NCBI GenBank assembly: GCA_963822445.1
Contig: CAWGHO010000002.1
Span: 736,001 to 800,000 of the forward strand
Direction: 5' to 3'
Length of the DNA stretch: 64,000 nucleotides
Source: an uncultured Acidobacteriota bacterium
GTDB lineage: Bacteria; Acidobacteriota; Thermoanaerobaculia; Gp7-AA8
Part shown: positions 1,803 to 57,125 of the stretch, piece after piece
Layout of the letters: each line of letters begins with the position of its first letter
Position numbering within the stretch: the first letter of the stretch is position 1
Made by a program: the position numbers and the translations under genes
The notes under the pieces: generated by a model
The model's input: only the letters and a program-made list of their open reading frames with translations
Database searches by the model: none
Told to the model about the DNA's origin: nothing

Positions 1803-2554
1803 AGATCCGCTTCTCCTCCGATGAAAACGCGTACCGGATCACGCTCGATGATCCGCCGCTGCACATCCTCGACATCGCCCTGCTCGAAGAGCTGCGCGAT
1901 GCCCTGTCGGGCGTCAGCAACGACCGCCACGCGCTGATCATCGACGCGGCCGGCGACAAAGCCTTCTCCGCCGGCGCGAGCGTGCAGGATCACTTCGCGG
2001 ACCGCGTCGCCACCATGCTGGCCACGTTTCATGACTGCTTCCGCAAGCTGGCGCGTCTCGACGTCGTCACGGTCGCATTCGTGCGTGGTGCGGCGCTCGG
2101 CGGCGGATGCGAGCTCGCGATGGCGTGCGACTTCGTCCTCGCCTCCGATCGCGCGACATTCGGCCAGCCGGAGATCAGGCTCGGCGTGTTCCCGCCCGTC
2201 GCCGCGTATCAGCTCTCGCGACAGCTCGCGCCCCGCAAAGGTCTCGAACTGCTGCTCACCGGCGAATCGATCGATGCCGCGCGAGCAGAACAGCTCGGCC
2301 TCGTGAACGCGGTCTTCTCCGCAAGCGAGTTCGACGCGCGGGCCGACGCGTGGATGCAGCGCCTGTGTCGCCAGAGCGCGTCGTCGTTGCGGTTCGCAAA
2401 GAAAGCCTTCCGCATCGCCCAGGCCGCAGACTTTGACGAGCGCCTCGCGAACGTCGAGCGCCTTTATCTCGAAGAGTTGATGAAGACCGGCGACGCCACG
2501 GAAGGGCTCAACGCGTTTCTTGAAAAGCGGAACCCGGAGTGGAGAAACCAGTAG
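1799..2554 (+). CDS. Enoyl-CoA hydratase/isomerase family protein
   Basis: GTGA overlap with the upstream stop. Crotonase motifs AFSAG, ALGGGCELAMACD, FGQPEIRLG. Confidence 0.9.
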   Translation: MKIRFSSDENAYRITLDDPPLHILDIALLEELRDALSGVSNDRHALIIDAAGDKAFSAGASVQDHFADRVATMLATFHDCFRKLARLDVVTVAFVRGAALGGGCELAMACDFVLASDRATFGQPEIRLGVFPPVAAYQLSRQLAPRKGLELLLTGESIDAARAEQLGLVNAVFSASEFDARADAWMQRLCRQSASSLRFAKKAFRIAQAADFDERLANVERLYLEELMKTGDATEGLNAFLEKRNPEWRNQ

Positions 2555-2643
2555 GCGGTAGGCAGTACGCGCGCTGGCGCGCGCTCGCGGTAGGCGGTGG
2601 AACCAAGCAGGGACGGGCGGTCGGGACTGCCTACCGCCTACTG
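2549..2643. repeat. Inverted heptamer-array element, unit GGTAGGC
   Basis: CAGTAGGCGGTAGGCAGT (2549-2566) and its exact reverse complement (2626-2643), with an internal GCGGTAGGCGGT. Contains the hydratase TAG stop. Confidence 0.85.
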
Positions 2644-2646
2644 CTT

Positions 2647-3027
2647 CTAATCCTGCTGGTCGAAAGCCACGGTCGTGTTCGCGTCGAACTTCACCAGCAT
2701 CTTCTTCGACGGGGAGGCCAGCGTTCCGAACGAGGCGATCATCACCACGCCGGACGACTTGCCGTCGCAGCCGACAGGCATCGGCCGCACGACCTTCAGC
2801 TCGCCGATCTGGCGGGCGATCGTCTTTCCCGACTCGTTGACCCACTCCAGCTTCGCGTTCTTCGCGAGCGTTTTTGCTTCCCCGAAGGTGTACTTGCCGG
2901 TCAGCAGGGTCACCACCTGAAGCTGGCGCTCCGAGCGGTTGACGAAACGGTTCACGCAGGTCGCGGCGTACGACGACTGCGCGGACAAAAGCGTGGCGAG
3001 GGCAACGGCAAAAACGCGGTTTTTCAT
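2647..3027 (-). CDS. Hypothetical secreted protein
   Basis: Signal peptide MKNRVFAVALATLLSAQSSYA, two Cys, typical codon usage. Confidence 0.7.
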   Translation of the reverse strand: MKNRVFAVALATLLSAQSSYAATCVNRFVNRSERQLQVVTLLTGKYTFGEAKTLAKNAKLEWVNESGKTIARQIGELKVVRPMPVGCDGKSSGVVMIASFGTLASPSKKMLVKFDANTTVAFDQQD

Positions 3028-3125
3028 GGCTGGGAGCGGGGCTTTCCGGGACATTCTACGCAACCTACAGCGGCGCCCGGCCGTACATTCCCACTGCGAC
3101 GGCGCTATGGACGCCGTGTGTCATC

Positions 3126-7898: not shown

Positions 7899-7944
7899 GG
7901 ACTGGTTGTTAACTCAGAGGGTGGGACGATTATGCCGTCGCCCG

Positions 7945-8033
7945 GGTTCCGAGGTTCCGAGGTTGCGAGGTTTCGGGGTTTCGGGGTTTCGGGGTGGGAC
8001 CTCGTAACCCCGCAACCTCGTAACCCCGTAACC
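7945..8033. repeat. Inverted octamer-array element, unit GGTTNCGR
   Basis: Six units GGTT(C/G/T)CG(A/G), short spacer TGGGA, then four reverse-complement units CC(T/C)CG(T/C)AA. Confidence 0.9.
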
Positions 8034-8049
8034 GCTCTTCGCCTCACCG

Positions 8050-9823: not shown

Positions 9824-9824
9824 G

Positions 9825-9905
9825 GAATGCAGAATTCAGAATGCAGAATGCAGAAAAAGCGAATCGCTTCTGCATTCTGCATTCTGCATTCTGCATTCTG
9901 CATTC
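9825..9905. repeat. Inverted heptamer-array element, unit GAATGCA
   Basis: (GAATGCA)x4 with one variant, about 12-bp spacer, then (TTCTGCA)x5. Confidence 0.9.
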
Positions 9906-16524: not shown

Positions 16525-17229
16525 ATGAAAGCAGTCGTCCTCCTGTCCGGCGGCCTGGACTCGGCGACCGTCCTGGCGATCGCCCGCGACCAGGGCCGCG
16601 AGTGCCTGGCCCTGTCGATCGTGTACGGCCAGCGCCATCACGTCGAGCTCGCCGCGGCGAAGCGCGTCGCCTCAGCGATCGGCGTCAGCGAGCATGTCGT
16701 CCACGCGCTCGATCTCCGCGTCTTCGGAGGGAGCGCTCTCACCGGCGACGTCGATGTTCCCAAGGACGCCGTCGGCGCCCCCGGCATCCCCGTGACCTAC
16801 GTCCCCGCCCGGAACACGATCTTCCTGGCCCTGGCCCTCGGATACGCCGAAGCGCGCGACGCCAACGAGATCTGGATCGGCGTGAACGCCCTCGACTACA
16901 GCGGCTACCCCGACTGCCGCCCCGACTTCATCGACGCGTTCCAGGAAGTGATCTGGAAAGGAACGCGCAGCGGCGTCGAGCACCGCGAACCGCGCCTCGT
17001 CGCCCCGCTCCTGCACATGACCAAAGCGGACATCATCCGCCGCGGCCTCGAGCTCGGCGTCGACTACGGAATCACCCACTCCTGCTACGACCCGACCGCC
17101 GACGGGCGGGCGTGCGGGCATTGCGATTCGTGCCTGCTTCGGAGGAAGGGGTTCGAGGAGGCGGGGGTTGAGGACCCCGCGCAGAGCCTCAGAGTCTCAG
17201 AGTCTCAAAGTCTCAGAGAAGAGACGTAA
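16525..17229 (+). CDS. queC: 7-cyano-7-deazaguanine synthase
   Basis: [27 protein letters not shown]. The C-terminus runs into a repeat arm. Confidence 0.95.
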
Positions 17230-17284
17230 TGCTGAAGATGATGGCGTCTACTTTGCGACTTTGAGACTCTGCGACTCTGAGACT
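17182..17284. repeat. Inverted octamer-array element, unit CAGAGTCT
   Basis: (CA(G/A)AG(T/C)CT)x4, about 31-bp spacer, then (ACT(T/C)TG(C/A)G)x4. Confidence 0.88.
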
Positions 17285-17291
17285 TCTTCCC

Positions 17292-17924
17292 ATGCGCATC
17301 ACCGAAATCTTCCATTCCATCCAGGGCGAATCCACCCACGCCGGCCGCCCCTGCGTGTTCGTGCGCCTGACCGGGTGCAATCTGCGCTGCGTGTGGTGCG
17401 ACTCCGAATACACCTTCACCGGTGGGGAGCGGATGTCGATCGATGAGGTGATGGCGCGGGTGGAGAGCTATGGGTGCAAGCTCGTCGAGATCACCGGCGG
17501 GGAGCCGCTCGCGCAGGCCGAGTCCTTCGATCTGATCAAGCGCCTTTGCGACGACGGATTCGAAGTTCTCATCGAGACCTCGGGGTCCATCGACGTCTCG
17601 CCGGTCGATCCGCGGGCGAAGATCATCCTCGACGTCAAATGCCCTGGCTCGGGTGAGGTGGAAAAAAACAGGTGGGAGAACCTCGACATCCTCCGCCCGC
17701 GTGACGAGATCAAGTTCGTCATCGCCGATCGTGCGGATTACGAGTGGGCGAAACAGGTGATCGAGGAACGCAAGCTCGATCGCTGGACGGTCCTCCTCTC
17801 GCCGGTTTGGGACAGAATGAGCATGAAGTCGCTGGCGGAGTGGATGCTCGCCGACCGCCTGCCGGCGCGGTTTCAGACGCAATTGCACAAGCACATCTGG
17901 GGAGCGGACGTACACGGCGTATGA
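17292..17924 (+). CDS. queE: 7-carboxy-7-deazaguanine synthase (radical SAM)
   Basis: EIFHSIQGE, CNLRCVWCD, ITGGEP, QLHKHIW. Confidence 0.93.
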   Translation: MRITEIFHSIQGESTHAGRPCVFVRLTGCNLRCVWCDSEYTFTGGERMSIDEVMARVESYGCKLVEITGGEPLAQAESFDLIKRLCDDGFEVLIETSGSIDVSPVDPRAKIILDVKCPGSGEVEKNRWENLDILRPRDEIKFVIADRADYEWAKQVIEERKLDRWTVLLSPVWDRMSMKSLAEWMLADRLPARFQTQLHKHIWGADVHGV

Positions 17925-18317
17925 CGAGAACTCGACCACATCGGAATCGCGGTCCGCTCGATCGAATCCGCGAAGATCTACGAAGCCCTCGGACTGACCA
18001 TCGATCACGTCGAGACCGTCGAGTCGCAGGGCGTAAAGACGGCCTTTCTCTCGGTCGGCGATTCGAATCTCGAGCTGCTCGAGCCCACCGGTCCCGAGTC
18101 GACCATCGCGAAATTCATCGAGAAGCGCGGCGAGGGCATCCATCACATCTGCCTTCGCGTCGACGACATCGAGGCCCATCTGGAGCGGCTCAAGGCGCAG
18201 GGCTTCCGGCTGATCAACGAGCATCCCGTCCCCGGCGCGCATGGCTGCCGCGTCGCCTTCCTCCATCCCGCGGCCGGCAACGGCGTGCTGATTGAATTGA
18301 GTGAAAAACAGGAATGA
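17921..18317 (+). CDS. mce: Methylmalonyl-CoA epimerase, apparent frameshift just after ATG (missing from ORF track)
   Basis: From 17931 it reads LDHIGIAVRS...ELLEP...KRGEGIHHICLRVDDI...VAFLHP...GVLIELSE. ATG 17921 is out of frame by one extra base. Confidence 0.85.
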
Positions 18318-19953: not shown

Positions 19954-22317
19954 ATGTTCAACCCCACCTGGTTTTACGTCGGCGCGATTTACGCCGCCGC
20001 GGTCTGGCTGGCCCGCCGCCGCGGGATCGATCTCCCGAAACGCATCGCCGCTTTTTTCTACGCGCTGGTGTTCGTCTTCCTCTACCTGCCGATGACCCAG
20101 GACTACGTCAATCTGCCCGTCGACTTCCTGAACACGATCCAGCCCTGGTCGAACGTCACCGGCGATCAGCCGCATGCGAACTCGGAGATCAACGACGTCA
20201 TCCTGCAGTTCGTGCCGTGGGCGCATCAGGTGCGCGAGAGCTGGAAGGCATTCGAGCCGCCGCTCTGGAATCACTTCGCCGCCAGCGGCTATCCCCTGCT
20301 GGCCAACGGTCAGGCCGCGGCGCTCTCGCCGTTGCGCCTTCTCGCGCTGCCGCTGTCGCTCGGCGATTCGATGACCGCCGAAGCGGCGATGAAGATCCTC
20401 ATCGCGCTCACGTTCACGTTTCTCTACTGCAGGAGGCGCGGCTACTCCGAACTGGCCAGCACGTTTGGCGCGGTGTCCTTCGGCTTCTCGACGTTCATCA
20501 TCGTCTGGCTGCACTTCCCGCACGTCAGCACGGCCTGTTTCGCGCCGGCGGTGCTGTACCTGATCGATCTGCTGGCAGAGCGGCGAACCTATCCGCGATT
20601 CGTCGCCGCGGCCGTGGTCTGGACGTTCATGCTCTTCGGCGGCCATCCCGAGACCGCGTCGCACATCTTTTTCCTGGCGCTGCTGTATGTGCTGTGGCTG
20701 ATCGTCATCGAACGCGTCGTGACCTGGCGCTTCCTGCTGACCCTCGGCGGCGCGATGACAGTCGCCGCGCTGCTTGCGGCGCCGTTTCTCGTCCCGTTTG
20801 CCGAAGCGCTCACGAAGTCGGAACGCTTCCAGGAGCTGAAGGGCAACTCCGATCACGGCAACGTGCCGTTTTCCGACGCGCGTTCCGCTGTCGTTCTGCT
20901 CTCGCCTCATTTCTACGGTGCGGTGCCTCACGAAAAAACGTGGGGACCAGCCCACACCGAGTCGATCAGCGGCTTCGCCGGCATCCTCGGCATCGCCGCC
21001 TGGTTCGCGATGCTCGCCCATGTCATCCGGCGCCGCGCGTGGCGATCGCGGGAGATGTTCTTTCTCGTCGCCACGATCATCGTCCTCGGCGTGATCCTGT
21101 CGTGGCCGGGCATCAACGACGCCTTTCATCTGATTTATGCGCTCGCCGCGAATGCGCGACTGCGGCTGGTGCTGGTGCTGCTGCTGGCGATTCAGACCGC
21201 GGCGGCGATTGATCTCGTAGACCGCCGTACAGCTCTCCTCGGCATCGGCGCCGCGGCGCTACTCGCATGGGTCGTCTTCTTCGCATCCAACTACGCCATT
21301 CCTCATCACCGCGACGCCGCGCTCTTCGCGCTTCTCCCGAGTTTCGGCGTGCTCCTGATCGCCACGATCGCCGTCCTCGCCAAACGCGAATTCGTGCTGC
21401 TGCTCGTACTGACGGCGGTCATCGGCGAGCTGTGGAACATCGGCAGCGGCTGGAACCCGACCGTGGAAAAGAAATGGATGTATCCGCGAACGCCGCTGCT
21501 CGAGAAGATGGCCGAGATCCAGGCCACGATTCCGAAGAACGAGCCGTTCCGCATCCTCGGCGACGAGTCGACGTTCTTCCCCAACCTCTCGGCGATTTAC
21601 GGCCTGGAAGACGTTCGCGCGCACGACCCGATGGCCAACGGCCGGTATCTGAAGACCCTGCAGAACGTCGTCGGCTACGACTGGAGGCAGTACCACACGC
21701 CCTGGCCGAACGACCTCTACAACCACTTCCTCGACTACCTCAACGTCCGCTTTCTCATCGCGAGCCCGTACGTCAAGGTCGAGCCATCGCAGTGGGCGCT
21801 GCGACATTCGAGTCGCGACGGTCGTATCTTCGAGAACACGATGGTGCTCCCCCGTTTTTACGCCGCGCGGAACGTCATCATCGAGTTCCGCGACGAGGTC
21901 TTCGATCAAAAGCTCAAAGAAATGGATGAGAAGTGGTCGCATACGGCTCTCCTCGATGAGCTCGAGCTCGAGAACCAGCAGATGCACGACGACTTCTTCA
22001 ACCCGCGGCCCGGCGACGCACCGATCGCGACGGTGGAGATGCTGCAGGCGACACCGCGCGACTACCGGATGAAAGTGAAGTCGCCGCGCTACTCGCTCGT
22101 CGTCAGCAGCGTGCCCTGGTGGCCGGGCTGGAAGGCGGAGCGCAACGGCGCCCGCATCGATCCGATCCGCGTCAACGGCGCATTCCTCGGATTCGCCGTG
22201 CCGGAAGGGGAGATGGACGTGCGGGTCTGGTACGACCCCTGGACGTGGAGGCTCGGCGTGATCGCGAGCCTGGCGACGGTGATCGGCCTGATCGCCTTCG
22301 CCGTCCTCCGCCCATGA
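19954..22317 (+). CDS. YfhO-family (GT-C-like) membrane protein, paralog 1
   Basis: PLWN..ASGYPLLANGQ, GGHPE, many TM helices, C-terminal WWPGWKA...VNGAFLG. Confidence 0.85.
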   Translation: MFNPTWFYVGAIYAAAVWLARRRGIDLPKRIAAFFYALVFVFLYLPMTQDYVNLPVDFLNTIQPWSNVTGDQPHANSEINDVILQFVPWAHQVRESWKAFEPPLWNHFAASGYPLLANGQAAALSPLRLLALPLSLGDSMTAEAAMKILIALTFTFLYCRRRGYSELASTFGAVSFGFSTFIIVWLHFPHVSTACFAPAVLYLIDLLAERRTYPRFVAAAVVWTFMLFGGHPETASHIFFLALLYVLWLIVIERVVTWRFLLTLGGAMTVAALLAAPFLVPFAEALTKSERFQELKGNSDHGNVPFSDARSAVVLLSPHFYGAVPHEKTWGPAHTESISGFAGILGIAAWFAMLAHVIRRRAWRSREMFFLVATIIVLGVILSWPGINDAFHLIYALAANARLRLVLVLLLAIQTAAAIDLVDRRTALLGIGAAALLAWVVFFASNYAIPHHRDAALFALLPSFGVLLIATIAVLAKREFVLLLVLTAVIGELWNIGSGWNPTVEKKWMYPRTPLLEKMAEIQATIPKNEPFRILGDESTFFPNLSAIYGLEDVRAHDPMANGRYLKTLQNVVGYDWRQYHTPWPNDLYNHFLDYLNVRFLIASPYVKVEPSQWALRHSSRDGRIFENTMVLPRFYAARNVIIEFRDEVFDQKLKEMDEKWSHTALLDELELENQQMHDDFFNPRPGDAPIATVEMLQATPRDYRMKVKSPRYSLVVSSVPWWPGWKAERNGARIDPIRVNGAFLGFAVPEGEMDVRVWYDPWTWRLGVIASLATVIGLIAFAVLRP

Positions 22318-24707
22318 ATCCCACCTGGATCTACGTCGCCGCGATTTATGCCGCCGCGATTGCCCTCGCGCGCCGCGCGGGCGTGCAGATGCCGGCGCGC
22401 GTGGCGGTCCTGTTCTACCTGCTCGTTCTCGGCTACCTGCTCGAGCCGATGACAGGGCGCGTGGTGAATGTTCACGCCGACATCGTCAGGACCCTTCCGC
22501 CGTGGTCGTTCATCGCCGAGGAGGAGTTGGTCACGCACAACCCGACCATGAACGACGTGCCGCTGCAGATGGTGCCGTGGGCCCACTCCGTGCGCGAAAG
22601 CTGGAAGTCGCTGCAGGCGCCGATCTGGAACGCGACTACGGGATGCGGCATGCCGTTGCTCGGCAATGGACAGAGCTCGGCGCTGTCGCCCATACGCCTC
22701 CTCGCGCTGCCGCTGAACCTCGGTCACGCGATGACGGCCGAAGCAGCGATGAAGTTCCTGATCGCCCTGACGTTCACGTTTCTGTTCTGCCGGCGGCGAT
22801 GGTCGGAAGAAGGCAGCGTCATCGCCGCGGTCACCTTCGCGTTCTCGGGCTTCCTCTTCGCCTGGCTCAACTTCCCGCACACCACGACGGTCTGTCTTTC
22901 TCCGGCGGTCTTCTACGTCATCGATCTCCTCGCCGAGCGGCCCTCGTTCGGAAGGTGCGCATTCGCGGGAGCGGTCGGCGCGGCTGTCGTTTTCGGCGGA
23001 CATCCGGAGACGGCCGCGCAGATGGCCTTCGTCGCGTTCCTCTACGTGCTCTGGCTGCGGCCGTCCCTGAGAAAGCTCGCGGCCATGGGGGGTGCGTTGA
23101 TCATCGCCGTCCTACTGGCGGCTCCGCACCTGGCGATGTTCGCGGAGAGCGTGACCAGGTCGCAGCGATTCGCCAATCTTCAGGTGAAGGCCTGGTCCGA
23201 TGAGCGGCTGCCCGACTCCGAATACCGGGCGGCCATCCCGATTCTGTTGCCGCGCTATTTCGGACCGCTCAACAGGCCGTTCGGGCCGGCCGTCCCGGAT
23301 GGCGTGACCGGCTTTGCAGGAGCGCTGGCTATTGCGGCCTGGTTCGCCGTGGCCTGGCAGGTCATCGCCTCGCGGAAGTGGCGGTCGATGGAAGCCTTTT
23401 TCGTCCTGCTGGCGGTTCTGATCTTCGGCGCGCTCTTCGAGTGGCCGGGGTTCACGGATCTCTTCAACTTCGTCATCCCGCTGAGCGCGCACGCGCGGTT
23501 GCGGCACGTGCTGGGCTTCGCGCTGGCCGTTCTCGCCGCGGCCGCGATCGATCATTCCCGCGTGCGGCGCGCGCCACTGCTCACCGGTCTCGGCATCGTC
23601 GCGATCGGGCTCGTCGCCCTGTTCGCCTTCGTTGAATTTCCGTACGCCGTTCGCGATCGCCGGCCGATGGCCATGCTTCTGGCCATCCCGGCCGCGCTGG
23701 TAATCATCACGGGCGCCGTAGCCGTGTCGTGGCGACGAATGGGCGCGTACGCGGCGTTGATCGTCGCCGTCGTCGCGGAGATGTACACCGGCGGCCGCGG
23801 CTTCAATTCACCGAACGATGAATCGTTCCTGTACGCGCGCACTCCGGTGATCGAGAAGCTCGAGCAGCTTCAGGCCGCGTCCACGGAGCCGTTTCGCGTG
23901 ACCGGTGTCGGGCCGATGCTTTTTCAGAACATCCCCGCCCTCTTCGGATTCGAGGACATCCGCGTCCACGATCCGATGGCCAACGCGCGTTACTTCGATT
24001 TCCTCGCCAGGACGGCGGTGTTCAAACCCGACGAGTACTTCGCGTTCTGGGAGGACCAGACGACGCATGTCCTGGACTTCCTCAACGTCCGCTACGTGAT
24101 GGCCGACCCGGGCGTGGTCATCGCCGATCTGAATCGCTACAGGCTCCGTTACGAAGGTCCGGATGGGCGGATCTACGAGAACAGCACCGTGCTGCCGCGC
24201 TTCTACGCCCCGCGCAACGTCATCGTCGATTTCGACGACAAGGGGTTCGACCGGCGGCTGCGGGAGATGGACGACAAGTGGTGGCACACGGCGCTGCTGG
24301 ACGAGCTCGAGCTCGAGAACCAGCAGATGCACGACGACTTTTTCAATCCGCGACCTCCCGATGCCCCCGAAGCGCGCGTGCAGATCGTGAAATCGTCGGC
24401 GAGGGAGTACCGGATCAACACGACCGCGCCGCGCTACACGCTGGTCGCGAGCAGCATCCCCTGGTGGCCGGGCTGGAAGGTCGAGCGCAACGGCAAGCGC
24501 ATCGATCCCATCCGCGTCAACAGCGCCTTCCTCGGATTCGCCGTGCCGCCCGGCGAGACGAAGGTAAGAGTCTGGTATGACCCATGGAGTTGGAAGGTGG
24601 GAATGGGGTTGAGTGTGATGACGATGATCGCGATTGCGTTACGGGGTTTCGGGGTTACGAGGTTTCGGGGTGGATTCAGAAGACCTCGTAACCCCGAAAC
24701 CTCGTAA
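22314..24707 (+). CDS. YfhO-family membrane protein, paralog 2
   Basis: Colinear with paralog 1, ATGA overlap. The stop lies within a repeat element. Confidence 0.85.
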   Translation: MNPTWIYVAAIYAAAIALARRAGVQMPARVAVLFYLLVLGYLLEPMTGRVVNVHADIVRTLPPWSFIAEEELVTHNPTMNDVPLQMVPWAHSVRESWKSLQAPIWNATTGCGMPLLGNGQSSALSPIRLLALPLNLGHAMTAEAAMKFLIALTFTFLFCRRRWSEEGSVIAAVTFAFSGFLFAWLNFPHTTTVCLSPAVFYVIDLLAERPSFGRCAFAGAVGAAVVFGGHPETAAQMAFVAFLYVLWLRPSLRKLAAMGGALIIAVLLAAPHLAMFAESVTRSQRFANLQVKAWSDERLPDSEYRAAIPILLPRYFGPLNRPFGPAVPDGVTGFAGALAIAAWFAVAWQVIASRKWRSMEAFFVLLAVLIFGALFEWPGFTDLFNFVIPLSAHARLRHVLGFALAVLAAAAIDHSRVRRAPLLTGLGIVAIGLVALFAFVEFPYAVRDRRPMAMLLAIPAALVIITGAVAVSWRRMGAYAALIVAVVAEMYTGGRGFNSPNDESFLYARTPVIEKLEQLQAASTEPFRVTGVGPMLFQNIPALFGFEDIRVHDPMANARYFDFLARTAVFKPDEYFAFWEDQTTHVLDFLNVRYVMADPGVVIADLNRYRLRYEGPDGRIYENSTVLPRFYAPRNVIVDFDDKGFDRRLREMDDKWWHTALLDELELENQQMHDDFFNPRPPDAPEARVQIVKSSAREYRINTTAPRYTLVASSIPWWPGWKVERNGKRIDPIRVNSAFLGFAVPPGETKVRVWYDPWSWKVGMGLSVMTMIAIALRGFGVTRFRGGFRRPRNPETS

Positions 24708-24717
24708 CCCCGCAACC
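24638..24717. repeat. Inverted octamer-array element, unit GGTTNCGR
   Basis: Four units, spacer TGGATTCAGAAGA, four reverse-complement units. Confidence 0.9.
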
Positions 24718-24723
24718 TGAGCG

Positions 24724-25506: not shown

Positions 25507-26765
25507 ACAGTCACTCCCTCTTCCACCTTCGCACCCTTGGGCACGACCACGATCCCTGAATCCGTCACCGTGAAACGGGCCCGGTCCTGCTCGATGTCGT
25601 AGCCGATGACCGTTCCCGGCGGCAGCTTCACGCCCTTGTCGATGATCGTGCGGCGGATCTTCGAATGCCGCCCGACCTCGACGCCGTCCATGAGAATCGA
25701 CTCATCGACGTCCGCGTACGAATTCACGCGAACGCGCGGATGCAGAACGCAACGGTTGATCGTCCCGCCGGAGAGGATGCAGCCGTCGGAGACGAGGGAG
25801 TCGGTCGCGATTCCGATGCGCTGCGACTCCTTGTCCGCGAAGACGAACTTCGCCGGCGGCTGGTGCATCGGCGCCGACACCATCGGCCAGAGCTGGTTGT
25901 ACAGATTGAACATCGGCGTGACCGCGACGAGATCGAGCGCCGCCGCGAAGTACGAATCGATCGTTCCCACGTCCCGCCAGTACCCGCGGTTGATCGCGTC
26001 CTCGCCTGGAATCACGTTCTTCGCGAAGTCGTACGCATACACCTTCATCTTCGGATACATCTGCGGGATGACTTCCTTGCCGAAGTCGATGCCGGCGTTG
26101 CGCAACGAGTTCTTCTGCAGGACGTCGATCATCACGTTCGACTTGAAGATGTAGTTGCCCATCGAGGCCAGGATCTGGTCGGGCCGTCCGGGAATGGTCT
26201 TCGCGCCGGTCTTCGGCTTCTCCACGAACCCGGTCACGCGAAAGTCGGAGTCGACTTCGACGACGCCGAACTGGTGGGCCTCTTCGACGGGCACGGGAAT
26301 CGTGGCGATGGTCAGGTCGGCATCATTGGCGATGTGCTCCTGGAGCATCTGATTCACATCCATCTTGTAGATGTGATCGCCGCCGAACACGCAGACGTAC
26401 TCCGGCTCTTCGTCGAAGATCAGCTCGAGGTTCTGAAAGACGGCGTCGGCCGTCCCGCGGAACCAGAACGGCCCTTTGCGCATCTGCGCTGGCACGACGT
26501 CGACGTACTGGCCGATCTCCGGCACGAGCCGCCAGGTCCTGGTGATGTGCTCGATCAGCGAGTTCGATTTGAACTGCGTGAGCACCTTGATCTTGAAGAA
26601 GCCGGAGTTGATGAAGTTGTTGATGACGAAGTCGATGATCCGGTACCGCCCGCCGAACGGCACGGCCGGCTTGGCGCGATCCCGCGTCAGGGGGAAGAGG
26701 CGCTCCCCCATCCCGCCGGCGAGAACCATCGTCAGCACATCACGACGCGACAGTGTTCCGTACAT
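25503..26765 (-). CDS. glgC: Glucose-1-phosphate adenylyltransferase
   Basis: [43 protein letters not shown]. Confidence 0.95.
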
Positions 26766-26817
26766 GGCCACCTTGAAACCGATTCTTTTGCTTCGACCGC
26801 AGGAAAGCAAATCCCGT

Positions 26818-26891
26818 GTCAGTGGTCAGTCGTCAGTGGTCAGTGGTCAGACCCGCCCCGTCGGACAACTGACCACTGACCACTGACCACT
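26818..26891. repeat. Inverted heptamer-array element, unit GTCAGTG
   Basis: (GTCAGTG/C)x4, 18-bp spacer, (CTGACCA)x3, between divergent genes. Confidence 0.88.
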
Positions 26892-26908
26892 AGTAAACTC
26901 CGCCCCGC

Positions 26909-27817
26909 ATGGCCGAGAAGGACTACTACGAGATCCTCGGCGTCAAGAAAACCGCCACGGACGAAGAGCTCAAGAAGGCGTATCGCAATCTCGCCAAGAA
27001 GTACCACCCCGACAAGAACAAGGGGAACAAAGAGGCGGAGGCGAAGTTCAAGGAGATCTCCGAGGCGTACGCCGTGCTCTCGGACAAAGACAAGCGCGAC
27101 CAGTACGACAGACTCGGCCGCGAAGCGTTCGGACCGGGCGGCGCGAATCCGTTCGCGGGCTTCGATTTCTCCGAGTTCATGGGCGGCGGAGGCGCGCGCG
27201 GTCGCAAAGCCGGCGGCCGCGGCGGCGCGCGAACGGTCGACTTCACCGATATCTTCGGCGACCTGTTCGGCGGAGCCGGCGGCGGCCGCGGTGGTTTCGG
27301 CGGATTCGAGAATGCCGAGCCGCCGGTCATGCAGGCCGAGCTGACCATCGAGTTCCGCGACGCCATCCAGGGCAACACCATGGCCCTGACCCTCAACGGC
27401 GAGCCGATCCGGGTGAAGATCCCCGAGGGCATCGGCAACGGGCAGAAGATCCGCGTTCCCAGAAAAGGGAGCACGATCGAGATCACCGTGCGCGTCAAAC
27501 CGCATCCGCTGTTCGAACGGCGCGGCGACGACATTCACATCGAGCTGCCCATCACCATCGGCGAAGCGATCCGCGGCGCGGAGATCGACGTGCCCACCAT
27601 CCACGGCAACGTCCGCATGCGCATCCCCGCCGGAACCCAGGCCGGCCGCACCATGCGCCTGACCGGCAAAGGCGTGAAAAAGAAAAACGGCACGGTTGGT
27701 GATCAGTACAACCGGATCGTGGTGATGGTGCCGTCCGAGGCGCCTTCGGATGCGGTTGATGCGCTCGAAGGGGCGTATCGGGAGAGTCCGCGGGTTAATT
27801 TGAAGGTTACGTTATGA
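26909..27817 (+). CDS. DnaJ class B / CbpA-like chaperone (no zinc finger)
   Basis: DYYEILGV...HPD J-domain, G/F-rich linker, DnaJ C-terminal domain. Confidence 0.9.
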
Positions 27818-27899
27818 GTTGCGGGGTTACGAGGTCACGGGGTTACGGGGCAGAAAAACCACCTCGCAACCCCGCAACCCCGTAACCCCGAAACCCCGA
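27818..27899. repeat. Inverted octamer-array element, unit GGTTNCGR
   Basis: Four units directly after the stop, spacer CAGAAAAACCA, then about 4.5 reverse-complement units. Confidence 0.9.
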
Positions 27900-29795: not shown

Positions 29796-29888
29796 AATGC
29801 AGAATGCAGAATGCAGAATGCAGAACCGGCCCACGTTACGTCGGGTCGATCTCACCTTTTTGCATTCTGCATTCTGCATTCTGCATTC
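29796..29888. repeat. Inverted heptamer-array element, unit GAATGCA
   Basis: (AATGCAG)x4, about 31-bp spacer, (TGCATTC)x4, filling the gap between the stop and aroA. Confidence 0.9.
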
Positions 29889-29891
29889 GTC

Positions 29892-31151: not shown

Positions 31152-31167
31152 TCCCGCGCCTTCCTTC

Positions 31168-32500
31168 ATGAACGCCTGGTATCTGTTTCTTGCCTTCCTG
31201 TTCGTGCTCGCCAACGGGTTCTTCGTGGCCGCCGAATTCGCGATCGTCAAAGTGCGGTCGACGCAGCTCACCGAGCTTGCCGAGGGGGAGCGTGCGGGCG
31301 AAGATGGCTCGCAAGCTCACCCGGAAGCTGGACGCCTACCTCTCCGCGACGCAGCTCGGCATCACCCTCTCGTCACTGGCCCTGGGATGGATCGGCGAGC
31401 CGGCCTTCCATCACATGCTCCAGCCGATCTTCACCAATCTCCAGATCGGTCCCAAGGCCGCAACCTCGATCTCCGCGACGGTGGCCTTCACCATCATCTC
31501 CGTCCTGCACATCGTCCTCGGCGAGCTCGCCCCGAAATCGATCGCCATCCAGAAACCGGTTGGCACCTCGCTGTGGGTCGCGCATCCGTTGCACGCGTTT
31601 TACGTCATCACCTACCCGGCGATCTGGCTGCTGAACGGCGTCTCGCGCGCGATTCTCAAGGTGTTCGGCATTCATCCGACCAGCGAGCATCTCGAAGCCG
31701 CGCACTCGCCGGAAGAGCTGCGGCTGATCCTGGCCAGCTCGGAGAAAGCGGGCATTCTCTCGGAGGAAAACCGGGAGATCATCGAAGGGGTCTTCCAATT
31801 CTCCAAGCGGACGGCGCGGCAGATCATGGTTCCGCGCACCGACGTGGTCGTGCTCTCGACGACGCGATCGATCGAGGAAAACCTCGAGACCATCCGCACC
31901 ACGCGCCACACCCGCTATCCGCTCTGCGACGGATCGCTCGATCAGACCATCGGCCTGATTCACGTGAAGGACCTGATGCTCGCGCAACTGCGCGGACCGG
32001 GCCGGCGCCTCGAGGATCTCAAGCGCGACATTCTCTTCGTCCCCGAGAACAGCACCGTGGAGTCGCTGCTCTCCCAGTTCATCGAACACAAGACTCACAT
32101 GGCCGTCGTGCTCGACGAATACGGCGGATCGTCGGGGATCGTGTCGCTGGAGAACATCACCGAGGAGCTGTTCGGGCAGATTCAGGACGAGTTCGATCGC
32201 GAGCGCCCCGAGATCGAGCCGTTGGGCAACGGCCGCTATCGCGTTCGCGGCGACTATCTGATCGAGGATCTCGCCGACCGGTTGAAGATCGATCTCGGCG
32301 ATCCCGAGGAAGAGACTGTCGGTGGATTCGTCGCGGCGCGTCTGGGCCGGGAAGTGACGCCCGGCGATCACGTGGACATGAGCGATCTGTCGATCACCGT
32401 CCTCGAGGCCGAGCGGTTCCGCGTTCGCTGGGTGATGGTGCAGATCGCGATGCCGGATACGGAGATCGCGCCCGACGAGCCGGAGCGCGAGGCGGATTGA
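31168..32500 (+). CDS. Hemolysin-family/CNNM (DUF21-CBS-CorC) protein with apparent frameshift near 31284-31288
   Basis: N-terminus LANGFFVAAEFAIV is in one frame. QLGITLSSLALGWIGEP, GELAPK and the CBS pair are in the next. The switch is at a G5 run. Confidence 0.85.
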
Positions 32501-33521: not shown

Positions 33522-33612
33522 GGTAGGCGGTAGGCGGTGTGCGGTAGGCGGGAGTTCGTTCCCCCGCCTACCGCCTACCGCGAGGCGCCATGAGGCGCCG
33601 TACCGCCTACTG
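33522..33612. repeat. Inverted heptamer-array element, unit GGTAGGC
   Basis: (GGTAGGC)x4 with one variant, then a spacer, then CCGCCTA units interrupted by a GC-rich insert. Includes the TAG of the adjacent gene. Confidence 0.85.
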
Positions 33613-40343: not shown

Positions 40344-40443
40344 GTTTCGGGGTTACGAGGTTTCGGGGTTACGAGGTCCGCCCGACCCTGCCACGACCCT
40401 TCATAGCTCCCTCGTAACCCCGTAACCCCGCAACCCCGTAACC
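40344..40443. repeat. Inverted octamer-array element, unit GGTTNCGR
   Basis: Four units, about 33-bp spacer, four reverse-complement units. Confidence 0.9.
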
Positions 40444-47398: not shown

Positions 47399-47489
47399 AG
47401 TCGTTAGTCGTTGGTGATTAGTCGTTAGTAGAACGAAGCAAGCTCTTCCCAGCGTTCTACTAACGACTAACGACTAATCACTAACGACT
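47399..47489. repeat. Inverted heptamer-array element, unit AGTCGTT
   Basis: (AGTCGTT)x4 with variants plus AGTAGAACG, 17-bp spacer, then CGTTCTACT(AACGACT)x4. Confidence 0.88.
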
Positions 47490-49110: not shown

Positions 49111-49133
49111 ATCCGCTTTATCGCGTTTTACCG

Positions 49134-49169: not shown

Positions 49170-49190
49170 GGGGCGCCGGTAGCGCGCCCT

Positions 49191-50024: not shown

Positions 50025-50068
50025 GGTCCGCGGATTGTATTGGTGCCGCCCGACTCATGGAGGCTCCA

Positions 50069-50743: not shown

Positions 50744-50757
50744 GTTATCGTCCCCGC

Positions 50758-51255: not shown

Positions 51256-52237
51256 GCGTGAGCAGTTGCGGCGCGAGATCGATCGCGGTCATGCCGTCGT
51301 TCATCACGCCGCGCAGCGCGTCATTCAGCGCCGTCAGCGGCAGCGCGCGAATGAACGGCTTGGCCGCGTCGGGAAATCGCTCGTACGAAAAGAACACGCC
51401 CGAGCAGACCCACATCGGCAGCATGACCAGGTTCATCAGACCGCTCACCGCCTCGATCGTCCGCGCCCGCGACGAGATCAGCAGGCCGATGCCCGCGAAC
51501 GTCGCGCCGCCGAGGAGACAGACGCCGATGAAGACGAGCAGCGAGCCGCGCACGGCCACATCGAAGATCAGCCAGGCGAAGACGATCAGCACCGTCACTT
51601 CGAGCACCAGGAAAACGAGCCGCGACAAAAAGTGCGAGAAGAGGTAGTGCGTCTTGCGCATCGGCGTGGCCACGAAGCGCTTGAGCAGTTTCTTCAGCCG
51701 CGCGTTCACGACCGAGAAGCCGATGCTCCACATGCCCGTGCCCATCAGGTTCATTCCGAGTAGGCCCGGCACCAGGAAGTCGACGTACCGCGAGCCCTGC
51801 TCGGTCACGTGCGTCTCTTTCGCGGTCATCACGTTCCTGCGTCCGGCCGCGATCTGCAGCGCGTTATCGACTTCAACCCGCGCCGTTCGCGCATCGGGTC
51901 GGGTCGGATCGAGGCGGTAAACCGGCGTGTCGCCGCCTTCGATCAGCAGAGAGATCTTGCCGCGGCGCAGCTCTTCGCGGCCTTCCTCGATCGAGTAAAC
52001 GCGCGCCTGCAGGACGGGCGACGTCTTCAAAGCGGCGAGCCGCGCCTTCGCCTGAAGGCTGTCCACGACGATGCCGACGGGGATCTTCTCCGGACCGCTC
52101 TCCCGAAAGGCGTAGCCGAGGGCCATCGTGAGCAGGAGAGGGAAGACGAAGACCCAGAACATCGCCTCCGGCTCGCGGATGAACTCTTTGAAGCGGACCT
52201 GGGTGAGCTCGATGAGCGGATGTCGCGTCTCACGCAT
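51197..52237 (-). CDS. ABC-2 type permease
   Basis: REPEAMFW, YVDFLVPGLLGM, LKRFVATP, FRWQ. Confidence 0.9.
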   Translation of the reverse strand: MRETRHPLIELTQVRFKEFIREPEAMFWVFVFPLLLTMALGYAFRESGPEKIPVGIVVDSLQAKARLAALKTSPVLQARVYSIEEGREELRRGKISLLIEGGDTPVYRLDPTRPDARTARVEVDNALQIAAGRRNVMTAKETHVTEQGSRYVDFLVPGLLGMNLMGTGMWSIGFSVVNARLKKLLKRFVATPMRKTHYLFSHFLSRLVFLVLEVTVLIVFAWLIFDVAVRGSLLVFIGVCLLGGATFAGIGLLISSRARTIEAVSGLMNLVMLPMWVCSGVFFSYERFPDAAKPFIRALPLTALNDALRGVMNDGMTAIDLAPQLLTLTAWAIVSSVIGLRIFRWQ

Positions 52238-53159: not shown

Positions 53160-53190
53160 GAGGCCGGAGAAGATAGCATCCTGTGCCGTC

Positions 53191-53257
53191 GTGTGGTGCA
53201 GGCCTCCGGCCTGCCTTCAATCACCGCAGAAAGGCAGGCCGGAGGCCCGCACTACAC
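53191..53257. repeat. REP-like doublet (GTAG/GTGG-type)
   Basis: GTGTGGTGCAGGCCTCCGGCCTGCCTT ... AAGGCAGGCCGGAGGCCCGCACTACAC. Confidence 0.8.
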
Positions 53258-53280
53258 CGGGGAAGCAGTAGCATCCCGCG

Positions 53281-54652: not shown

Positions 54653-54667
54653 TGCCGCCTCCCGACC

Positions 54668-54743
54668 GGTTGCTGAGTTGCTGGGTTGCTGAGTTGCTGG
54701 GTCCCCCACCCAGCAACCTAGCAACTCGGCGACCAAGCAACCG
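54668..54743. repeat. Inverted octamer-array element, unit RGTTGCTG
   Basis: (R GTTGCTG)x4, short spacer, then (AC(C/T)CAGCA-like)x4 with variants. Confidence 0.88.
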
Positions 54744-54745
54744 TT

Positions 54746-55801
54746 TCAAAACAACATCCCTTGCAAACTCCGGCGCCGGAAGTGTTCCGTCGACAACTCC
54801 CGATCCTCTTCATTGAACCCGGACCTGCGGCAGGCCACGTCGAAGAGGGCGGCGATCTGTTCGGCGAAAATCCCTTCCCCTTTGCCCCGCACGCCCCATT
54901 TCGCGTCGTAGAGCTTGCCGCCGCGGAGGTCGCGGACGCGGTTCAGGACCTTGTCCTTGCGGTCGGGAAAGTGCTCTTCCAGCCAGCGCTCGAACAGCGG
55001 CGCGACGGCCCAGGGCAGGCGCAGCACGACGAAGCCCGCCCATTTCGCGCCGGCTTTGCGCGCGGCTTCGAGGATCTTCGGCATCTCGTGATCGGTAATG
55101 CCCGGCACGACCGGTGCGACCATCACGCCCACCGGCACGCCGGCATCGCTCAGCTTCGCCAGAGCCTCGAGCCGCATCTCCGGGGTCGACGTCCGCGGCT
55201 CCATCGTTCGCGCGAGATTCGCGTCGAGCGTGGTGATCGACACAAACACCCGCGTGGCGTTGAAGCGCGCCAGTTCGGCGAAGAGATCGGCGTCGCGCGT
55301 CACCAGGTGATTCTTCGTGATCACGCCCACTGGATTGCGGAACTCCGCCAGCACCTCGATGCAGCCGCGGGTGATGCCCAGTTTGCGCTCGATCGGCTGG
55401 TAGGGATCGGTCACGCCACTGATGGCGATGGTCTTCGGCTCCCACGACTTCTTGCTCAGCTCCTCGCGCAGCAGCTCCGCCGCGTCTTCCTTCACCAGGA
55501 TCTTCGACTCGAAGTCGAGGCCGGCGGAGAAGCCCAGGTACTCATGCGTGGGACGCGCAAAACAGTAGATGCAGCCATGCTCGCAGCCGCGGTAGGGATT
55601 GATGCTGGCCTCGAAGCCGACGTCCGGGCTGTCGTTCGTGGCGATGATGGTGCGGGTCGGATCGCGCATGTAGATCGTGCGCGGACCGGAATCACGCTCT
55701 TCGATGTGCGCGTCTTCGTCGACGACGTATTCGAGTTTTTCGAACCGGTTGTTGGGGTTCCAGGACGCCCCGCGTCCTTTGATGGGATTGGGATCGTTCA
55801 A
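54746..55801 (-). CDS. PA0069/Rv2578c-family radical SAM protein
   Basis: KGRGA, SINPYRGCEHGCIYCFAR, TDPYQPIE. TTG start overlaps the MFS stop. Confidence 0.9.
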   Translation of the reverse strand: MNDPNPIKGRGASWNPNNRFEKLEYVVDEDAHIEERDSGPRTIYMRDPTRTIIATNDSPDVGFEASINPYRGCEHGCIYCFARPTHEYLGFSAGLDFESKILVKEDAAELLREELSKKSWEPKTIAISGVTDPYQPIERKLGITRGCIEVLAEFRNPVGVITKNHLVTRDADLFAELARFNATRVFVSITTLDANLARTMEPRTSTPEMRLEALAKLSDAGVPVGVMVAPVVPGITDHEMPKILEAARKAGAKWAGFVVLRLPWAVAPLFERWLEEHFPDRKDKVLNRVRDLRGGKLYDAKWGVRGKGEGIFAEQIAALFDVACRRSGFNEEDRELSTEHFRRRSLQGMLF

Positions 55802-57018
55802 AGTTCCCGCAATTTTCGCAGACCGGGCGAGCGCCAGGCCGTGAGTGCTACGACCAGTAGAGTCATGAACCCGCCGAAAAGGACCGAAGGCACTACGCCG
55901 AGTAGACGCGCTGCCATCCCCGACTCGAACGCGCCGATCTCGTTCGACGAGCCGATGAAGATCTGATTGACCGCCGAGACGCGGCCGAGGAGGTGCTGGG
56001 GTGTGCGGGTCTGGAGGAGCGTCGAGCGGATGACCACGCTCACGTTGTCGAAGATGCCGCTGGCGAAGAGGACGGCGAAGGAGACCCAGAAGTGCCGCGA
56101 CAGGGCGAAGGCGATCATGCACACCCCGAACGCCGCCACCGACGCGAACAACGCGAATCCCGCACGGCGCATGGGCGGGCGGTGGGCGATGACGAAGCCG
56201 GTCAGGATCGCGCCGGCCGCGGGTGCAGCGCGTAGAACGCCCAGGCCTTCCGGTCCGGCGTCGAGCAACTTCGCGAACACGGGCAACAACGCGACCGCAC
56301 CGCCGAAGAGCACCGCGAACAGATCGAGAGTCATCGCCGCGAGCAGCACCGGCTCGCGCCAGACGAAGCGAAGTCCGGCCTTCAGGCTCTCACCGAACGG
56401 CTCGCCCTCTTCGACCACCGGCCGCGAACGCTCGGCCACGGACGTGATCACAACCAGGGACACGATCATCACCGCGATGACACCGCCGTAAGCGGCGGTC
56501 GGTCCCGCGAATCCGTATGCCATGCCGCCGAGAGCCGGTCCGGCCACGGCCGCGAAATGCCAGCTCGACGTCCGCCAGGCCACCGCGTTCGGATAGAGCT
56601 CGCGAGGCACGACCTGCGCGGACAGCGCCACGATCGACGGACGCATGAAACTCCGCGCGGTCGCGCTCAGCGCGATGATCAGATACACCGGCCAGACCCG
56701 TCCCGCGTGAATCGCATTCGGCGTGACGGTCAGCAACAGCAGCGCGATCGCCGAGAGCACCATCGCGAACGTGCCGGCGATCCCCATCGTCCGCCGCTCC
56801 GCGCGATCGGCCACATGCCCCGCATACAAGGCAATGGCAATGTACGGCAGCGCCTCGGCCAACCCGATGAGCCCCAGCGTCAGCGGATCGCCCGTGAGCG
56901 CGAACACCTGCCACCCCACGACCACGATCTGCGCCTCACGCGCGAGGGTGAGCGTGCCGTGGGAGAGAAGGAGCTTGCGGAAGTCGGGGATGGCCAGTGC
57001 GGCGTAGGGAGATGACAT
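55798..57018 (-). CDS. MFS transporter (MFS_3/EntS-like)
   Basis: GHVADR, TLDLFAVLFGG, SSNEIGAFESG. Confidence 0.9.
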   Translation of the reverse strand: MSSPYAALAIPDFRKLLLSHGTLTLAREAQIVVVGWQVFALTGDPLTLGLIGLAEALPYIAIALYAGHVADRAERRTMGIAGTFAMVLSAIALLLLTVTPNAIHAGRVWPVYLIIALSATARSFMRPSIVALSAQVVPRELYPNAVAWRTSSWHFAAVAGPALGGMAYGFAGPTAAYGGVIAVMIVSLVVITSVAERSRPVVEEGEPFGESLKAGLRFVWREPVLLAAMTLDLFAVLFGGAVALLPVFAKLLDAGPEGLGVLRAAPAAGAILTGFVIAHRPPMRRAGFALFASVAAFGVCMIAFALSRHFWVSFAVLFASGIFDNVSVVIRSTLLQTRTPQHLLGRVSAVNQIFIGSSNEIGAFESGMAARLLGVVPSVLFGGFMTLLVVALTAWRSPGLRKLREL

Positions 57019-57125
57019 GGTTGCTGAGTTGCTGGGTTGCTAGGTTGCTGGGCGCTCCGCAGGACGCGCGATCATGCCCCTTGGCGAAGCACTCAGCAAC
57101 CTAGCAACCCAGCAACCCAGCAACC
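57019..57125. repeat. Inverted octamer-array element, unit RGTTGCTG
   Basis: Four units directly upstream of the MFS ATG, about 38-bp spacer, four reverse-complement units. Confidence 0.9.

Follow-up and report, generated by a model that had tools for sequence, protein, structure and literature searches.

Protein-coding intervening sequences (IVSs) of 23S ribosomal RNA, such as those of Coxiella burnetii and Leptospira, are inserts with inverted repeats at their ends, which pair into a long stem that encloses an open reading frame (ORF) for S23p, a protein of the family PF05635/TIGR02436. In the passages of PMC4990558 on the 23S IVS of Coxiella, a terminal stem of 28 bp that is cut mid-stem by RNase III is described, together with three to four GACAGAT heptamers directly before the S23p start codon. 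The same passages cite Ralph and McClelland, who proposed that the IVS is mobile and that its ORF acts in this mobility, and refer to Lin et al. 2006 for the structure of XCC0516, a homopentamer. In this report, thirteen short hairpin elements with arms of tandem 7- or 8-mers are described from a 64-kb stretch of DNA (the window), which covers positions 736001-800000 of contig C2 in genome G000 (G000:C2:736001-800000; 6.0 Mb, 64.5% G+C, three contigs). With moderate confidence, these elements are read as the ORF-less members of an IVS-type class of palindromic elements, similar to the repetitive extragenic palindromic (REP) doublets known as REPINs, that is built around genes for small four-helix-bundle (4HB) proteins.

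Tandem heptamer repeats are known from cyanobacteria as short tandemly repeated repetitive (STRR) sequences, and the GGGGAYT heptamers of Nostoc have reportedly been proposed to form G-quadruplexes (G4) or i-motifs. We know of no gene that is associated with STRR sequences or with the TAACTGA repeats. The latter, found in Beggiatoaceae, cyanobacteria and Bacteroidetes, resemble the present elements in being intergenic tandem heptamers of 2-6 copies near start codons with a patchy cross-phylum distribution, and differ in being almost all direct rather than inverted, with one indirect set among 170 in the genome concerned (sections of PMC4679880 on these repeats). The convergent design, in which arrays of a single heptamer form inverted pairs, is already published for Xanthomonas (PMC4692102, Rehm et al. 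2015). According to the sections of that paper on the arrays, there are about 185 GGGAATC arrays of about four units, including 70-75 convergent pairs per genome; they are read as G-quadruplex formers, and the array type is mostly preserved between two species. In Xanthomonas campestris, a four-unit GGGAATC array spans the start of XCC0516 (supplement file 2 of PMC4692102); as far as its main text goes, 'S23' has no occurrences and no link between XCC0516 and S23p is made. The Xanthomonas arrays thus share with the present elements the intergenic tandem heptamers of about four units, the convergent inverted pairs and a 4HB gene that abuts one array, and they differ in having a single unit and in their interpretation as G-quadruplexes.

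REPINs and their genes, the REP-associated tyrosine transposases (RAYTs), are described in parts of PMC3116915 as hundreds of extragenic, hairpin-forming inverted doublets, as a single-copy gene with these repeats on both sides and several sets of a family and its cognate gene per genome, and as a vertically inherited gene with a repeat population that turns over. All of these features are also found here. However, the gene is here a 4HB gene and not a Y1/HUH transposase, the arms consist of tandem 7- or 8-mers, and most families do not copy the loop, a shared spacer being limited to the GGTTGCTG sub-family. In addition, the 400 nt around the Y1_Tnp-like genes of G000 contain no period-7/8 array other than one weak 2.1-copy array of GC type. 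REP palindromes carry a GTAG or CGTC tag at one end (as stated in part of PMC3733652), and some of the units in G000 contain GTAG, namely GGTAGGC and AGTAGGC. The protein family and the terminal inverted repeats around an ORF are shared with the rRNA IVSs, and the arms of 31-35 nt are comparable with the 28-bp stem of Coxiella. In contrast to the IVSs, which lie in helix 9, 25 or 45 of the 23S rRNA, the present elements lie between protein genes, most copies are ORF-less, and a single genome contains about 300 copies, which fall into at least 19 unit families, together with six distinct 4HB genes.

The link to the 4HB genes comes from larger copies of the same design. Arrays were detected with Tandem Repeats Finder (TRF), and a period-7/8 array was paired with a reverse complement nearby. 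At five places in G000, arrays that lack a partner at short range are paired over a distance of 364-398 nt and have one small ORF between them. These ORFs match TIGR02436 'four helix bundle protein' (E 5e-22 to 9e-37) and PF05635 '23S rRNA-intervening sequence protein'. A whole-genome search with TIGR02436 gave exactly six matches, which are these five and one more, and all six genes are flanked by inverted arrays with one unit per gene (AGTCGTT, AGGGACG, GGTTNCGG, GAATGCA, GAAGGCA and AATTGAA). The six proteins share just 17-40% identity. The three most abundant hairpin families, GGTTNCGG with 80 elements, AGTCGTT with 31 and GAATGCA with 30, all have a 4HB gene, and two window hairpins (9825..9905 and 47399..47489) have the units of the 4HB elements at G000:C3:1244056-1244487 and G000:C1:681551-681990, respectively. 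The short hairpins and the six 4HB elements therefore share both architecture and unit families, the common architecture being a G-rich arm of four units and 3 nt, a spacer or gene, and the reverse complement. In the original prediction, similar arrays flanking 4HB or GxxExxY genes had been mentioned, and a search for larger copies with a cargo ORF in the spacer had been suggested; such copies exist, with all six 4HB genes of G000 in the spacer position, while GxxExxY (TIGR04256) has no match in the genome. Within the 64-kb window itself there is no 4HB gene, and the thirteen spacers (3-60 nt) are without an ORF.

Other cargo has been observed between matching arms. One ORF of 120 aa is unassigned, and two further ORFs were named by eye, one as ABM-like and one (321 aa) as hydrolase-like. 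The 120-aa ORF (G000:C2:654246-654687) lies between AGTAATG/ACTCATC arms in the same position as the 4HB genes, has no Pfam or NCBIfam match and may be a second cargo type. The closest solved structure to the 4HB proteins is 2gsc, XCC0516 with five chains (E 1e-25), and none of the six has a PADLOC defence match. To our knowledge, no function is known for the very large family TIGR02436/PF05635, nor any catalytic activity or catalytic motif for the 4HB protein. A relative of the family is Avd of the diversity-generating retroelements (DGRs), a nucleic-acid-binding pentamer. The fold is homologous, with matches to PF22296 (E 1.5e-10), NF033474 (E 2.9e-9) and PHROG 3206 (E 5.6e-12); however, the NF033474 score is 37.2 bits against an equivalog cut-off of 80, and neither a PF00078 reverse transcriptase (RT) nor a template/variable repeat pair accompanies the genes in this genome.

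Flanking by inverted arrays is a general feature of the 4HB family. Two sequences served as queries, the alignment of the six proteins being too divergent. Among 80 public loci that encode relatives of one of these proteins, 48 carry a tandem array of period 7 (rarely 8) on the upstream side and the reverse complement of this array on the downstream side. They span Acidobacteriota, Planctomycetota, Bacteroidota, Clostridia, Proteobacteria, Gemmatimonadota, Verrucomicrobiota, Actinomycetota and others, and their units are nearly all different from one another; the best public matches to the 4HB proteins of G000 are from Acidobacteriota metagenome-assembled genomes. Within the genus, all 35 genomes carry between one and nine 4HB genes (33 of 33 when two unpublished genomes, G002 and G032, are set aside). 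The loci of these two genomes were excluded from the genus-locus, orthologous-site and 113-locus analyses, and in the published genomes of the genus 19 of 28 4HB loci are array-flanked. Under a stricter rule applied to all 113 loci, 69 are array-flanked, with a median of 4.4 copies and with 65 heptamers and four octamers. Units and proteins also vary together: the distance between units is 3.3-3.4 mismatches below 50% protein identity, 1.5 at 60-70% and at most 1.0 above 70%. The Mantel correlation between unit distance and protein identity is -0.20, a value reached in none of 2000 permutations and to which shared descent, left uncorrected, contributes.

Genome-wide, 300 inverted array pairs are found in G000, and 593 of the 870 period-7/8 arrays with at least 2.5 copies are part of a pair. 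When partners at 3-100 nt were counted for the 870 arrays, 298 had an inverted partner and four a direct one, and a third-order Markov simulation of 1 Mb yielded five arrays of at least 3.5 copies compared with 120 in a real 1 Mb. The hairpins are therefore not due to chance. The 49 distinct consensus units fall into about 19 recognisable families, many of which are one mismatch apart, so that the predicted dispersed, multi-family system of non-coding elements is indeed present. The claim that the G-rich strand always runs toward the spacer holds as a strong bias and not as a rule: a G-rich (G>C) left arm and a C-rich (G<C) right arm are found in 279 of 300 pairs (93%), with no fully reversed pair, and in other taxa the left arm on the top strand has G>C in 57 of the 69 flanked loci, where left equals upstream solely for plus-strand genes.

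The copy number of the arms is sharply distributed. Among 7-mer elements, 83 of 144 left arms have 4.3-4.6 copies, and among 8-mer elements 79 of 156 have 4.2-4.5, which indicates an arm of four units plus about three bases (31 nt for 7-mers and 35 nt for 8-mers); the constant property of the arms is copy number and not length. The elements have a median length of 85 nt and a median spacer of 21 nt (10th-90th percentile 8-40). Within one family, the arms are near-identical and sharply bounded, with variant units in shared places, and the two arms of one copy are often inexact complements. The spacers are mostly unique: in a short-word search, 13 of the 173 spacers that found themselves also matched elsewhere in the genome, and these matches were mostly second-tier arrays. 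The exception is the GGTTGCTG sub-family, in which a spacer of about 40 nt is conserved, palindromic and found in both orientations. Five apparent nestings are all GGTTGTCR arms directly within GGTTNCGG arms, and because all five are of this one type they are read as two-tier hairpins (stems) and give no proof of loop-targeted insertion. The spacers show no general signal of self-complementarity (mean z -0.15, 10% below -2). As a whole, the hairpins fold with a mean minimum free energy of -54 kcal/mol for 87 nt, and both strands are very stable.

Some arrays in G000 depart from these lengths. Long-armed versions were observed at G000:C3:131956-132121, with CAGCGGG x10.4 against CTGCCCG x10.1, and at C2:909829-910086, where the arms of a GGTTCCGG element reach 10 and 13.5 copies and a GGTTGTCA tier lies inside them, compared with the usual 4.4 copies. 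A hexamer array, GCCCGA x20.7, is present at G000:C2:945880-946039.

In the window, twelve of the thirteen predicted sites consist of a G-rich period-7/8 array that is followed within 3-42 nt by its reverse complement as detected by TRF, with 2.6-6.5 copies per arm (mostly 3.9-4.8), and the seven unit types are all as they had been listed (Table 1). The thirteenth, predicted at 2549, does exist as a hairpin, although its arms are short, with about 2.3-2.5 units each and not about four; TRF detects just a GC-rich 10-mer at 2568-2589, and the TAG stop codon of the upstream gene (2552-2554) lies inside the first unit. All thirteen elements are located between protein genes. According to our own codon-bias gene calls, from which gene ends and junction types were taken, nine lie at tandem junctions, two at convergent ones (2550 and 24638) and two at divergent ones (26818 and 57019), in agreement with the mixed contexts that had been claimed. 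The element at 27818..27898 occupies the entire gap between a stop at 27817 and a start at 27902, and the one at 57019..57125 is a member of the sole sub-family with a conserved and itself palindromic spacer.

Table 1. Hairpin elements of the window (positions in the window; copy numbers are given for the left and right arm)
Element	Position	Strand	Arms, spacer and context
Short-armed GGTAGGC/AGTAGGC hairpin	2550..2642	.	Arms 2550-2567 and 2628-2642 by sequence reading; arm sequences AGTAGGCGGTAGGCAGTA / TGCCTACCGCCTACT; 60-nt spacer holds a GC-rich palindrome
GGTTNCGR hairpin	7944..8033	.	6.5 + 4.4 copies; 3-nt spacer; flanked by two minus-strand genes
GAATGCA hairpin	9825..9905	.	4.4 + 5.4 copies; 12-nt spacer
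CAGAGTCT (AGTCTCAG family) hairpin	17182..17285	.	4.6 + 4.5 copies; 31-nt spacer
GGTTNCGR hairpin	24638..24718	.	4.2 + 4.5 copies; 11-nt spacer; convergent genes
GTCAGTG hairpin	26818..26891	.	4.7 + 4.0 copies; 13-nt spacer; divergent gene starts
GGTTNCGR hairpin	27818..27898	.	4.1 + 4.8 copies; 10-nt spacer
GAATGCA hairpin	29796..29888	.	4.3 + 4.0 copies; 35-nt spacer; begins 1 nt past the stop at 29795
GGTAGGC hairpin	33522..33581	.	4.3 + 2.6 copies; 12-nt spacer
GGTTNCGR hairpin	40344..40443	.	3.4 + 3.9 copies; 42-nt spacer
AGTCGTT hairpin	47399..47489	.	4.4 + 4.4 copies; 29-nt spacer (starts AGAAC, ends GTTCT)
RGTTGCTG hairpin	54669..54742	.	3.9 + 4.4 copies; 8-nt spacer
GGTTGCTG hairpin	57019..57125	.	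4.2 + 4.0 copies; 41-nt spacer; divergent gene starts

Two called genes, 17205-18266(-) and 22314-24707(+), run 70-80 nt into the hairpins at 17182 and 24638 (17205-17285 and 24638-24707), with their stop codons inside, and the C-termini of these adjoining genes may have been replaced or extended by the element. A 41-nt tandem repeat of 1.9 copies at 51454-51530 (TRF score 94) is unrelated to the hairpin families.

Genome-wide, 25 of the 300 elements lie within a called gene, and the 275 intergenic ones are divided over 199 tandem junctions, 44 pairs of divergent starts and 32 of convergent ends. This split of 72/16/12% follows the background of 67/16/16%, and terminator positions are therefore not enriched. 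The distance to the upstream stop codon has a median of 2 nt, with 55% of the elements within -10 to +5, and the next start codon is at a median of 23 nt. For the 199 elements in tandem context, no preference for sense over antisense folding was observed (87 vs 111, p=0.054), and the right flanks, as judged by eye, are not T-rich. A role as intrinsic terminators was rejected on the basis of the background-like junctions, the 44 of 275 elements between divergent starts and the flanks without T-richness, in line with the earlier view that the elements are not simply terminators. A scan of the window against Rfam at gathering thresholds gave no match, so the expectation that no described family accounts for the elements also stands as regards RNA families.

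The position of the hairpins was compared with relatives at four window junctions, using congeners that are syntenic with G000 at about 75-85% nucleotide identity; rows with an inconsistent tblastn order (G009, G004 and G019 at junction J1) were left out. At the 29796 junction, 10 of 14 relatives have no array and mostly show a stop/start overlap, and the other four have hairpins of AGTCTTAG-type 8-mers (G017), GATGAGC (G006), AAATGCA (G008) and degenerate GAACGCA (G012). At the 27818 junction, 8 of 11 usable relatives are empty, and the other three have a GGTTGTC hairpin (G006), a solo array (G016) and a degenerate array (G013). The divergent junction at 26818 is without an array in 12 of 15 relatives, seven of which have gaps of 69-87 nt; array hairpins are found in G003 (GGATCGC) and G006 (two-tier) and a purine-rich palindrome in G011. 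At the g5|g6 junction (31151-31292), a GGTTCCTG hairpin is present in G008 and none in G000. The contigs from four soil runs cover the window partially and are mostly 88-95% similar; the sole contig used was a bridging one of about 93% identity, in which the 29796 site is empty with 26 nt between the genes. Presence/absence polymorphism and unit switching at orthologous junctions, for which a comparison of relatives had been proposed, are thus seen in the congeners, and an empty site is seen also at this closer distance.

In contrast to this turnover of the short hairpins between species, a 4HB element can be stably inherited with arms that change in concert. One 4HB element is shared by eight species, in all of which it is flanked by the same pair of transporter genes; its units follow the protein clade (AGGTATG/AGGGATG in one and AGGTAAA/AGGGAAA/AGAGGAA in the other), and both arms have changed together. 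At this transporter-gene site, G031 carries a different 4HB gene, with arms of AGTGCTG. The upstream array of these elements extends up to the start codon or into it.

Some further observations were made at these junctions. In the relatives, the divergent promoter region (window 26771-26909) has a conserved GATTCTTTCCAAGAT ... TATACTT pattern; in G000 the GTCAGTG hairpin is placed between a GCAAAT-like box and a -10-like box, and at 26818 it should disrupt the spacing of the promoter boxes. A non-tandem, GC-rich palindromic repeat (for example CATCCTGAGCCGCGCAGACGGCGAAGG...) with a REP-like appearance occurs at the g5|g6 junction in the relatives G006 (L017) and G003 (L016), and the four Y1_Tnp-like genes of G000 might belong with such REP-like palindromic repeats. 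In four soil/sediment metagenomes, the summed contig depth peaks 10-50-fold at the GTCAGTG and GAATGCA arrays (bins 26670-26903 and 29712-29945), indicating that these units are common in many other organisms of such samples.

The hairpin population of a genome tracks its 4HB repertoire only partly. In G005, which has one 4HB gene with GAATGAA arms, all five hairpins in a 380-kb sample are of the same unit type, at about a quarter of the density in G000, and in G003 one of the genome's own 4HB genes has AGATCGC arms, which match the GGATCGC hairpin. On two unrelated chromosomes, the unit of a 4HB element is dispersed over many other loci as plus-then-minus pairs, with 77+75 pattern hits in G048, 10+23 in G049 and none in the reversed-pattern controls. 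Some orphan units of G000 or G016 have a cognate 4HB gene in congeners, for example AGTCTCAA in G001 and the GGTTCC-type in G015.

A mechanism can be proposed in which the full-length versions would be those with a small 4HB gene (TIGR02436/PF05635, the 'S23p' of rRNA IVSs and a relative of Avd) in the spacer position. By analogy with the ring of five in 2gsc, a 4HB pentamer may read the five-fold repeated core of one arm with one unit per subunit, since the first trinucleotide of the unit occurs five times, 7 or 8 nt apart, in an arm of four units and three bases. This reading would probably take place on the G-rich single strand, which in the mRNA of the 4HB gene lies directly next to the start codon. 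When transcribed, the stems of 31-35 bp would be substrates for RNase III as in the Coxiella IVS, and because such stems can be processed, inserts would be tolerated between cistrons and in rRNA loops. The short hairpins may be spread or renewed by a process at the DNA level that makes no target duplication and usually leaves a new loop, and the complementarity and homogeneity of the arms may be kept by intra-hairpin correction, array slippage and selection by the protein. As a tentative and rather doubtful extension, a five-subunit 4HB ring that reads five tandem units on the G-rich strand could be the core of an unrecognised, cross-phylum class of selfish or regulatory elements, in which this protein, and not a transposase or RT, specifies which hairpins are renewed, copied or processed. 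Such a class would bring together the protein-coding rRNA IVSs, the 'G4' heptamers of Xanthomonas and many heptamer arrays of bacteria, and the Avd of DGRs would have been recruited from it.

Several results weigh against a class of elements built around the 4HB genes. About half of the hairpins in G000 belong to unit families without a 4HB gene in this genome, and these orphan arrays are as pure as the others (0.931, n=135, vs 0.933, n=156; p=0.61). In a 250-kb sample of G016, which has one 4HB gene (GAGGGAT), the seven hairpins are from three families other than that of the gene, and the unit of the 4HB gene in a Brevundimonas record is restricted to the two flanks of that gene. The spacers of the hairpins show no similarity to the interior of the 4HB elements (mean z 0.1-0.9), whereas the arms match, and derivation by internal deletion is therefore not shown. 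The co-variation of protein and unit can be explained by shared descent alone. No target-site duplication was detected, as the similarity of the flanks equals that of a shuffled-partner control (longest common substring of at least 5: 13% vs 11%). The flanks also have no extra complementarity compared with shuffled partners, and an 'ATGAA' on both sides of filled copies at one junction may be merely the retained stop/start overlap. A transposase, nuclease or polymerase partner was not identified in G000. The RNase III homologue is found as two adjacent pieces (model 1-60 and 83-193; G000:C3:961330-961919), each below the family cut-off; a frameshift, an insertion or an assembly error may lie behind this split. 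The two 23S genes cover 2965-2969 nt against a model of 2925 positions, and thus neither contains an IVS.

Among the alternatives, the hairpins may serve the host as RNA elements, as intercistronic processing, stabilizing or terminating structures under selection, with the 4HB proteins as trans-acting post-transcriptional regulators and without any mobility. The way in which the elements abut stop codons shortly before the next start, the very stable stems, the intact state of families without a cognate 4HB gene and the vertical inheritance of one 4HB element at a single site in eight species all agree with this, and a similar regulatory idea is proposed for the TAACTGA repeats in part of PMC4679880. 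It is nevertheless unlikely, since most congeners are without an element at orthologous junctions, others have different units, and the contig of about 93% identity is empty; the junction split that follows the background with 44 of 275 elements between divergent starts, sense folds that are no better than antisense ones and right flanks without T-richness (by eye) point the same way. The ordinary mobile-element explanation, in which miniature inverted-repeat transposable elements or REPINs are moved by a transposase of the insertion sequence or RAYT type encoded elsewhere and the 4HB genes are passive cargo, is improbable. It would fit with the terminal inverted repeats, the high copy number and patchy distribution, the GGTTGCTG sub-family that is copied whole in both orientations, and the other cargoes between arms, and 18 genes for 23S_rRNA_IVP have been found wedged between cas genes (sections of PMC3936711). 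However, target-site duplications are lacking, the interior is unconserved in most families, and about 19 unit families would need equally many transposase specificities. No period-7/8 array was found within 400 nt of the four PF01797 (Y1_Tnp, HUH-like) matches in G000, except for a weak one of GC type with 2.1 copies, and the flanking of six out of six 4HB genes by arrays together with the co-variation of protein and unit is more than passive cargo predicts.

The original prediction favored a dedicated enzyme family and a telomere-type addition, in which repeats are made in place by telomerase-like or slippage synthesis on both 3' ends of a break that are then joined head to head. In favor of such synthesis, the G-rich strand points toward the centre (5'->3') in 279 of 300 pairs, the spacers of most families are unique (13 of 173 with other matches) and target duplication is absent; in addition, the Avd relatives are cofactors of the RT of DGRs (PHROG and NCBIfam matches). 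Yet PF00078 has no match in G000, which is 94.7% complete, and the Y1/HUH-like genes stand apart from the arrays as described above, so neither the dedicated enzyme nor the telomere-type fusion finds support. The fixed arm length of four units and 3 nt and the order of variant units common to copies indicate the copying of a finished arm and not open-ended addition; in one family the 40-nt spacer is copied as well, and the two arms of a copy are often inexact complements. In-place synthesis is accordingly also improbable. The formation of G-quadruplexes or i-motifs, as for the heptamers of Xanthomonas and Nostoc, is the least plausible basis for the system and very improbable as such. When the units stand in tandem, runs of at least three G occur in GGTTNCGG (80 elements), GGTTGCTG, GGTTGTCR, AGTGGGC and AGCGGGC, and the Xanthomonas repeats do form G4 in vitro (as reported in part of PMC4692102). 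But there is no GGG in GAATGCA, AGTCGTT, GGTAGGC, AGTAGGC, AAGGCTCA, AGTCGCAA, AATTGAA, GATTGAT and GTCAGTG; by direct reading of the units, families without GGG make up about 170 of the 291 classified elements, and the feature common to all families is the inverted tandem design with its copy number and not the G-tracts.

The reading of the hairpins as ORF-less relatives of 4HB elements would connect observations that have been made separately. In a full-text literature search, no paper was found that links 4HB genes to flanking tandem arrays or dispersed hairpins (curated TIGRFAMs comments were outside its scope), and no connection was found between the three literatures that would be joined here, on rRNA IVSs, on the G4 heptamers of Xanthomonas and on the heptamer repeats of cyanobacteria and Beggiatoaceae. 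This reading would account for the presence, in a soil lineage, of approximately 300 conspicuous hairpins between the genes of one genome, and it suggests a reason for 4HB genes wedged inside operons such as the cas loci (reported in sections of PMC3936711). For the family TIGR02436/PF05635, it provides a testable nucleic-acid partner in the form of its own flanking 7/8-nt arrays, and the co-variation of unit and protein offers dozens of natural specificity pairs.

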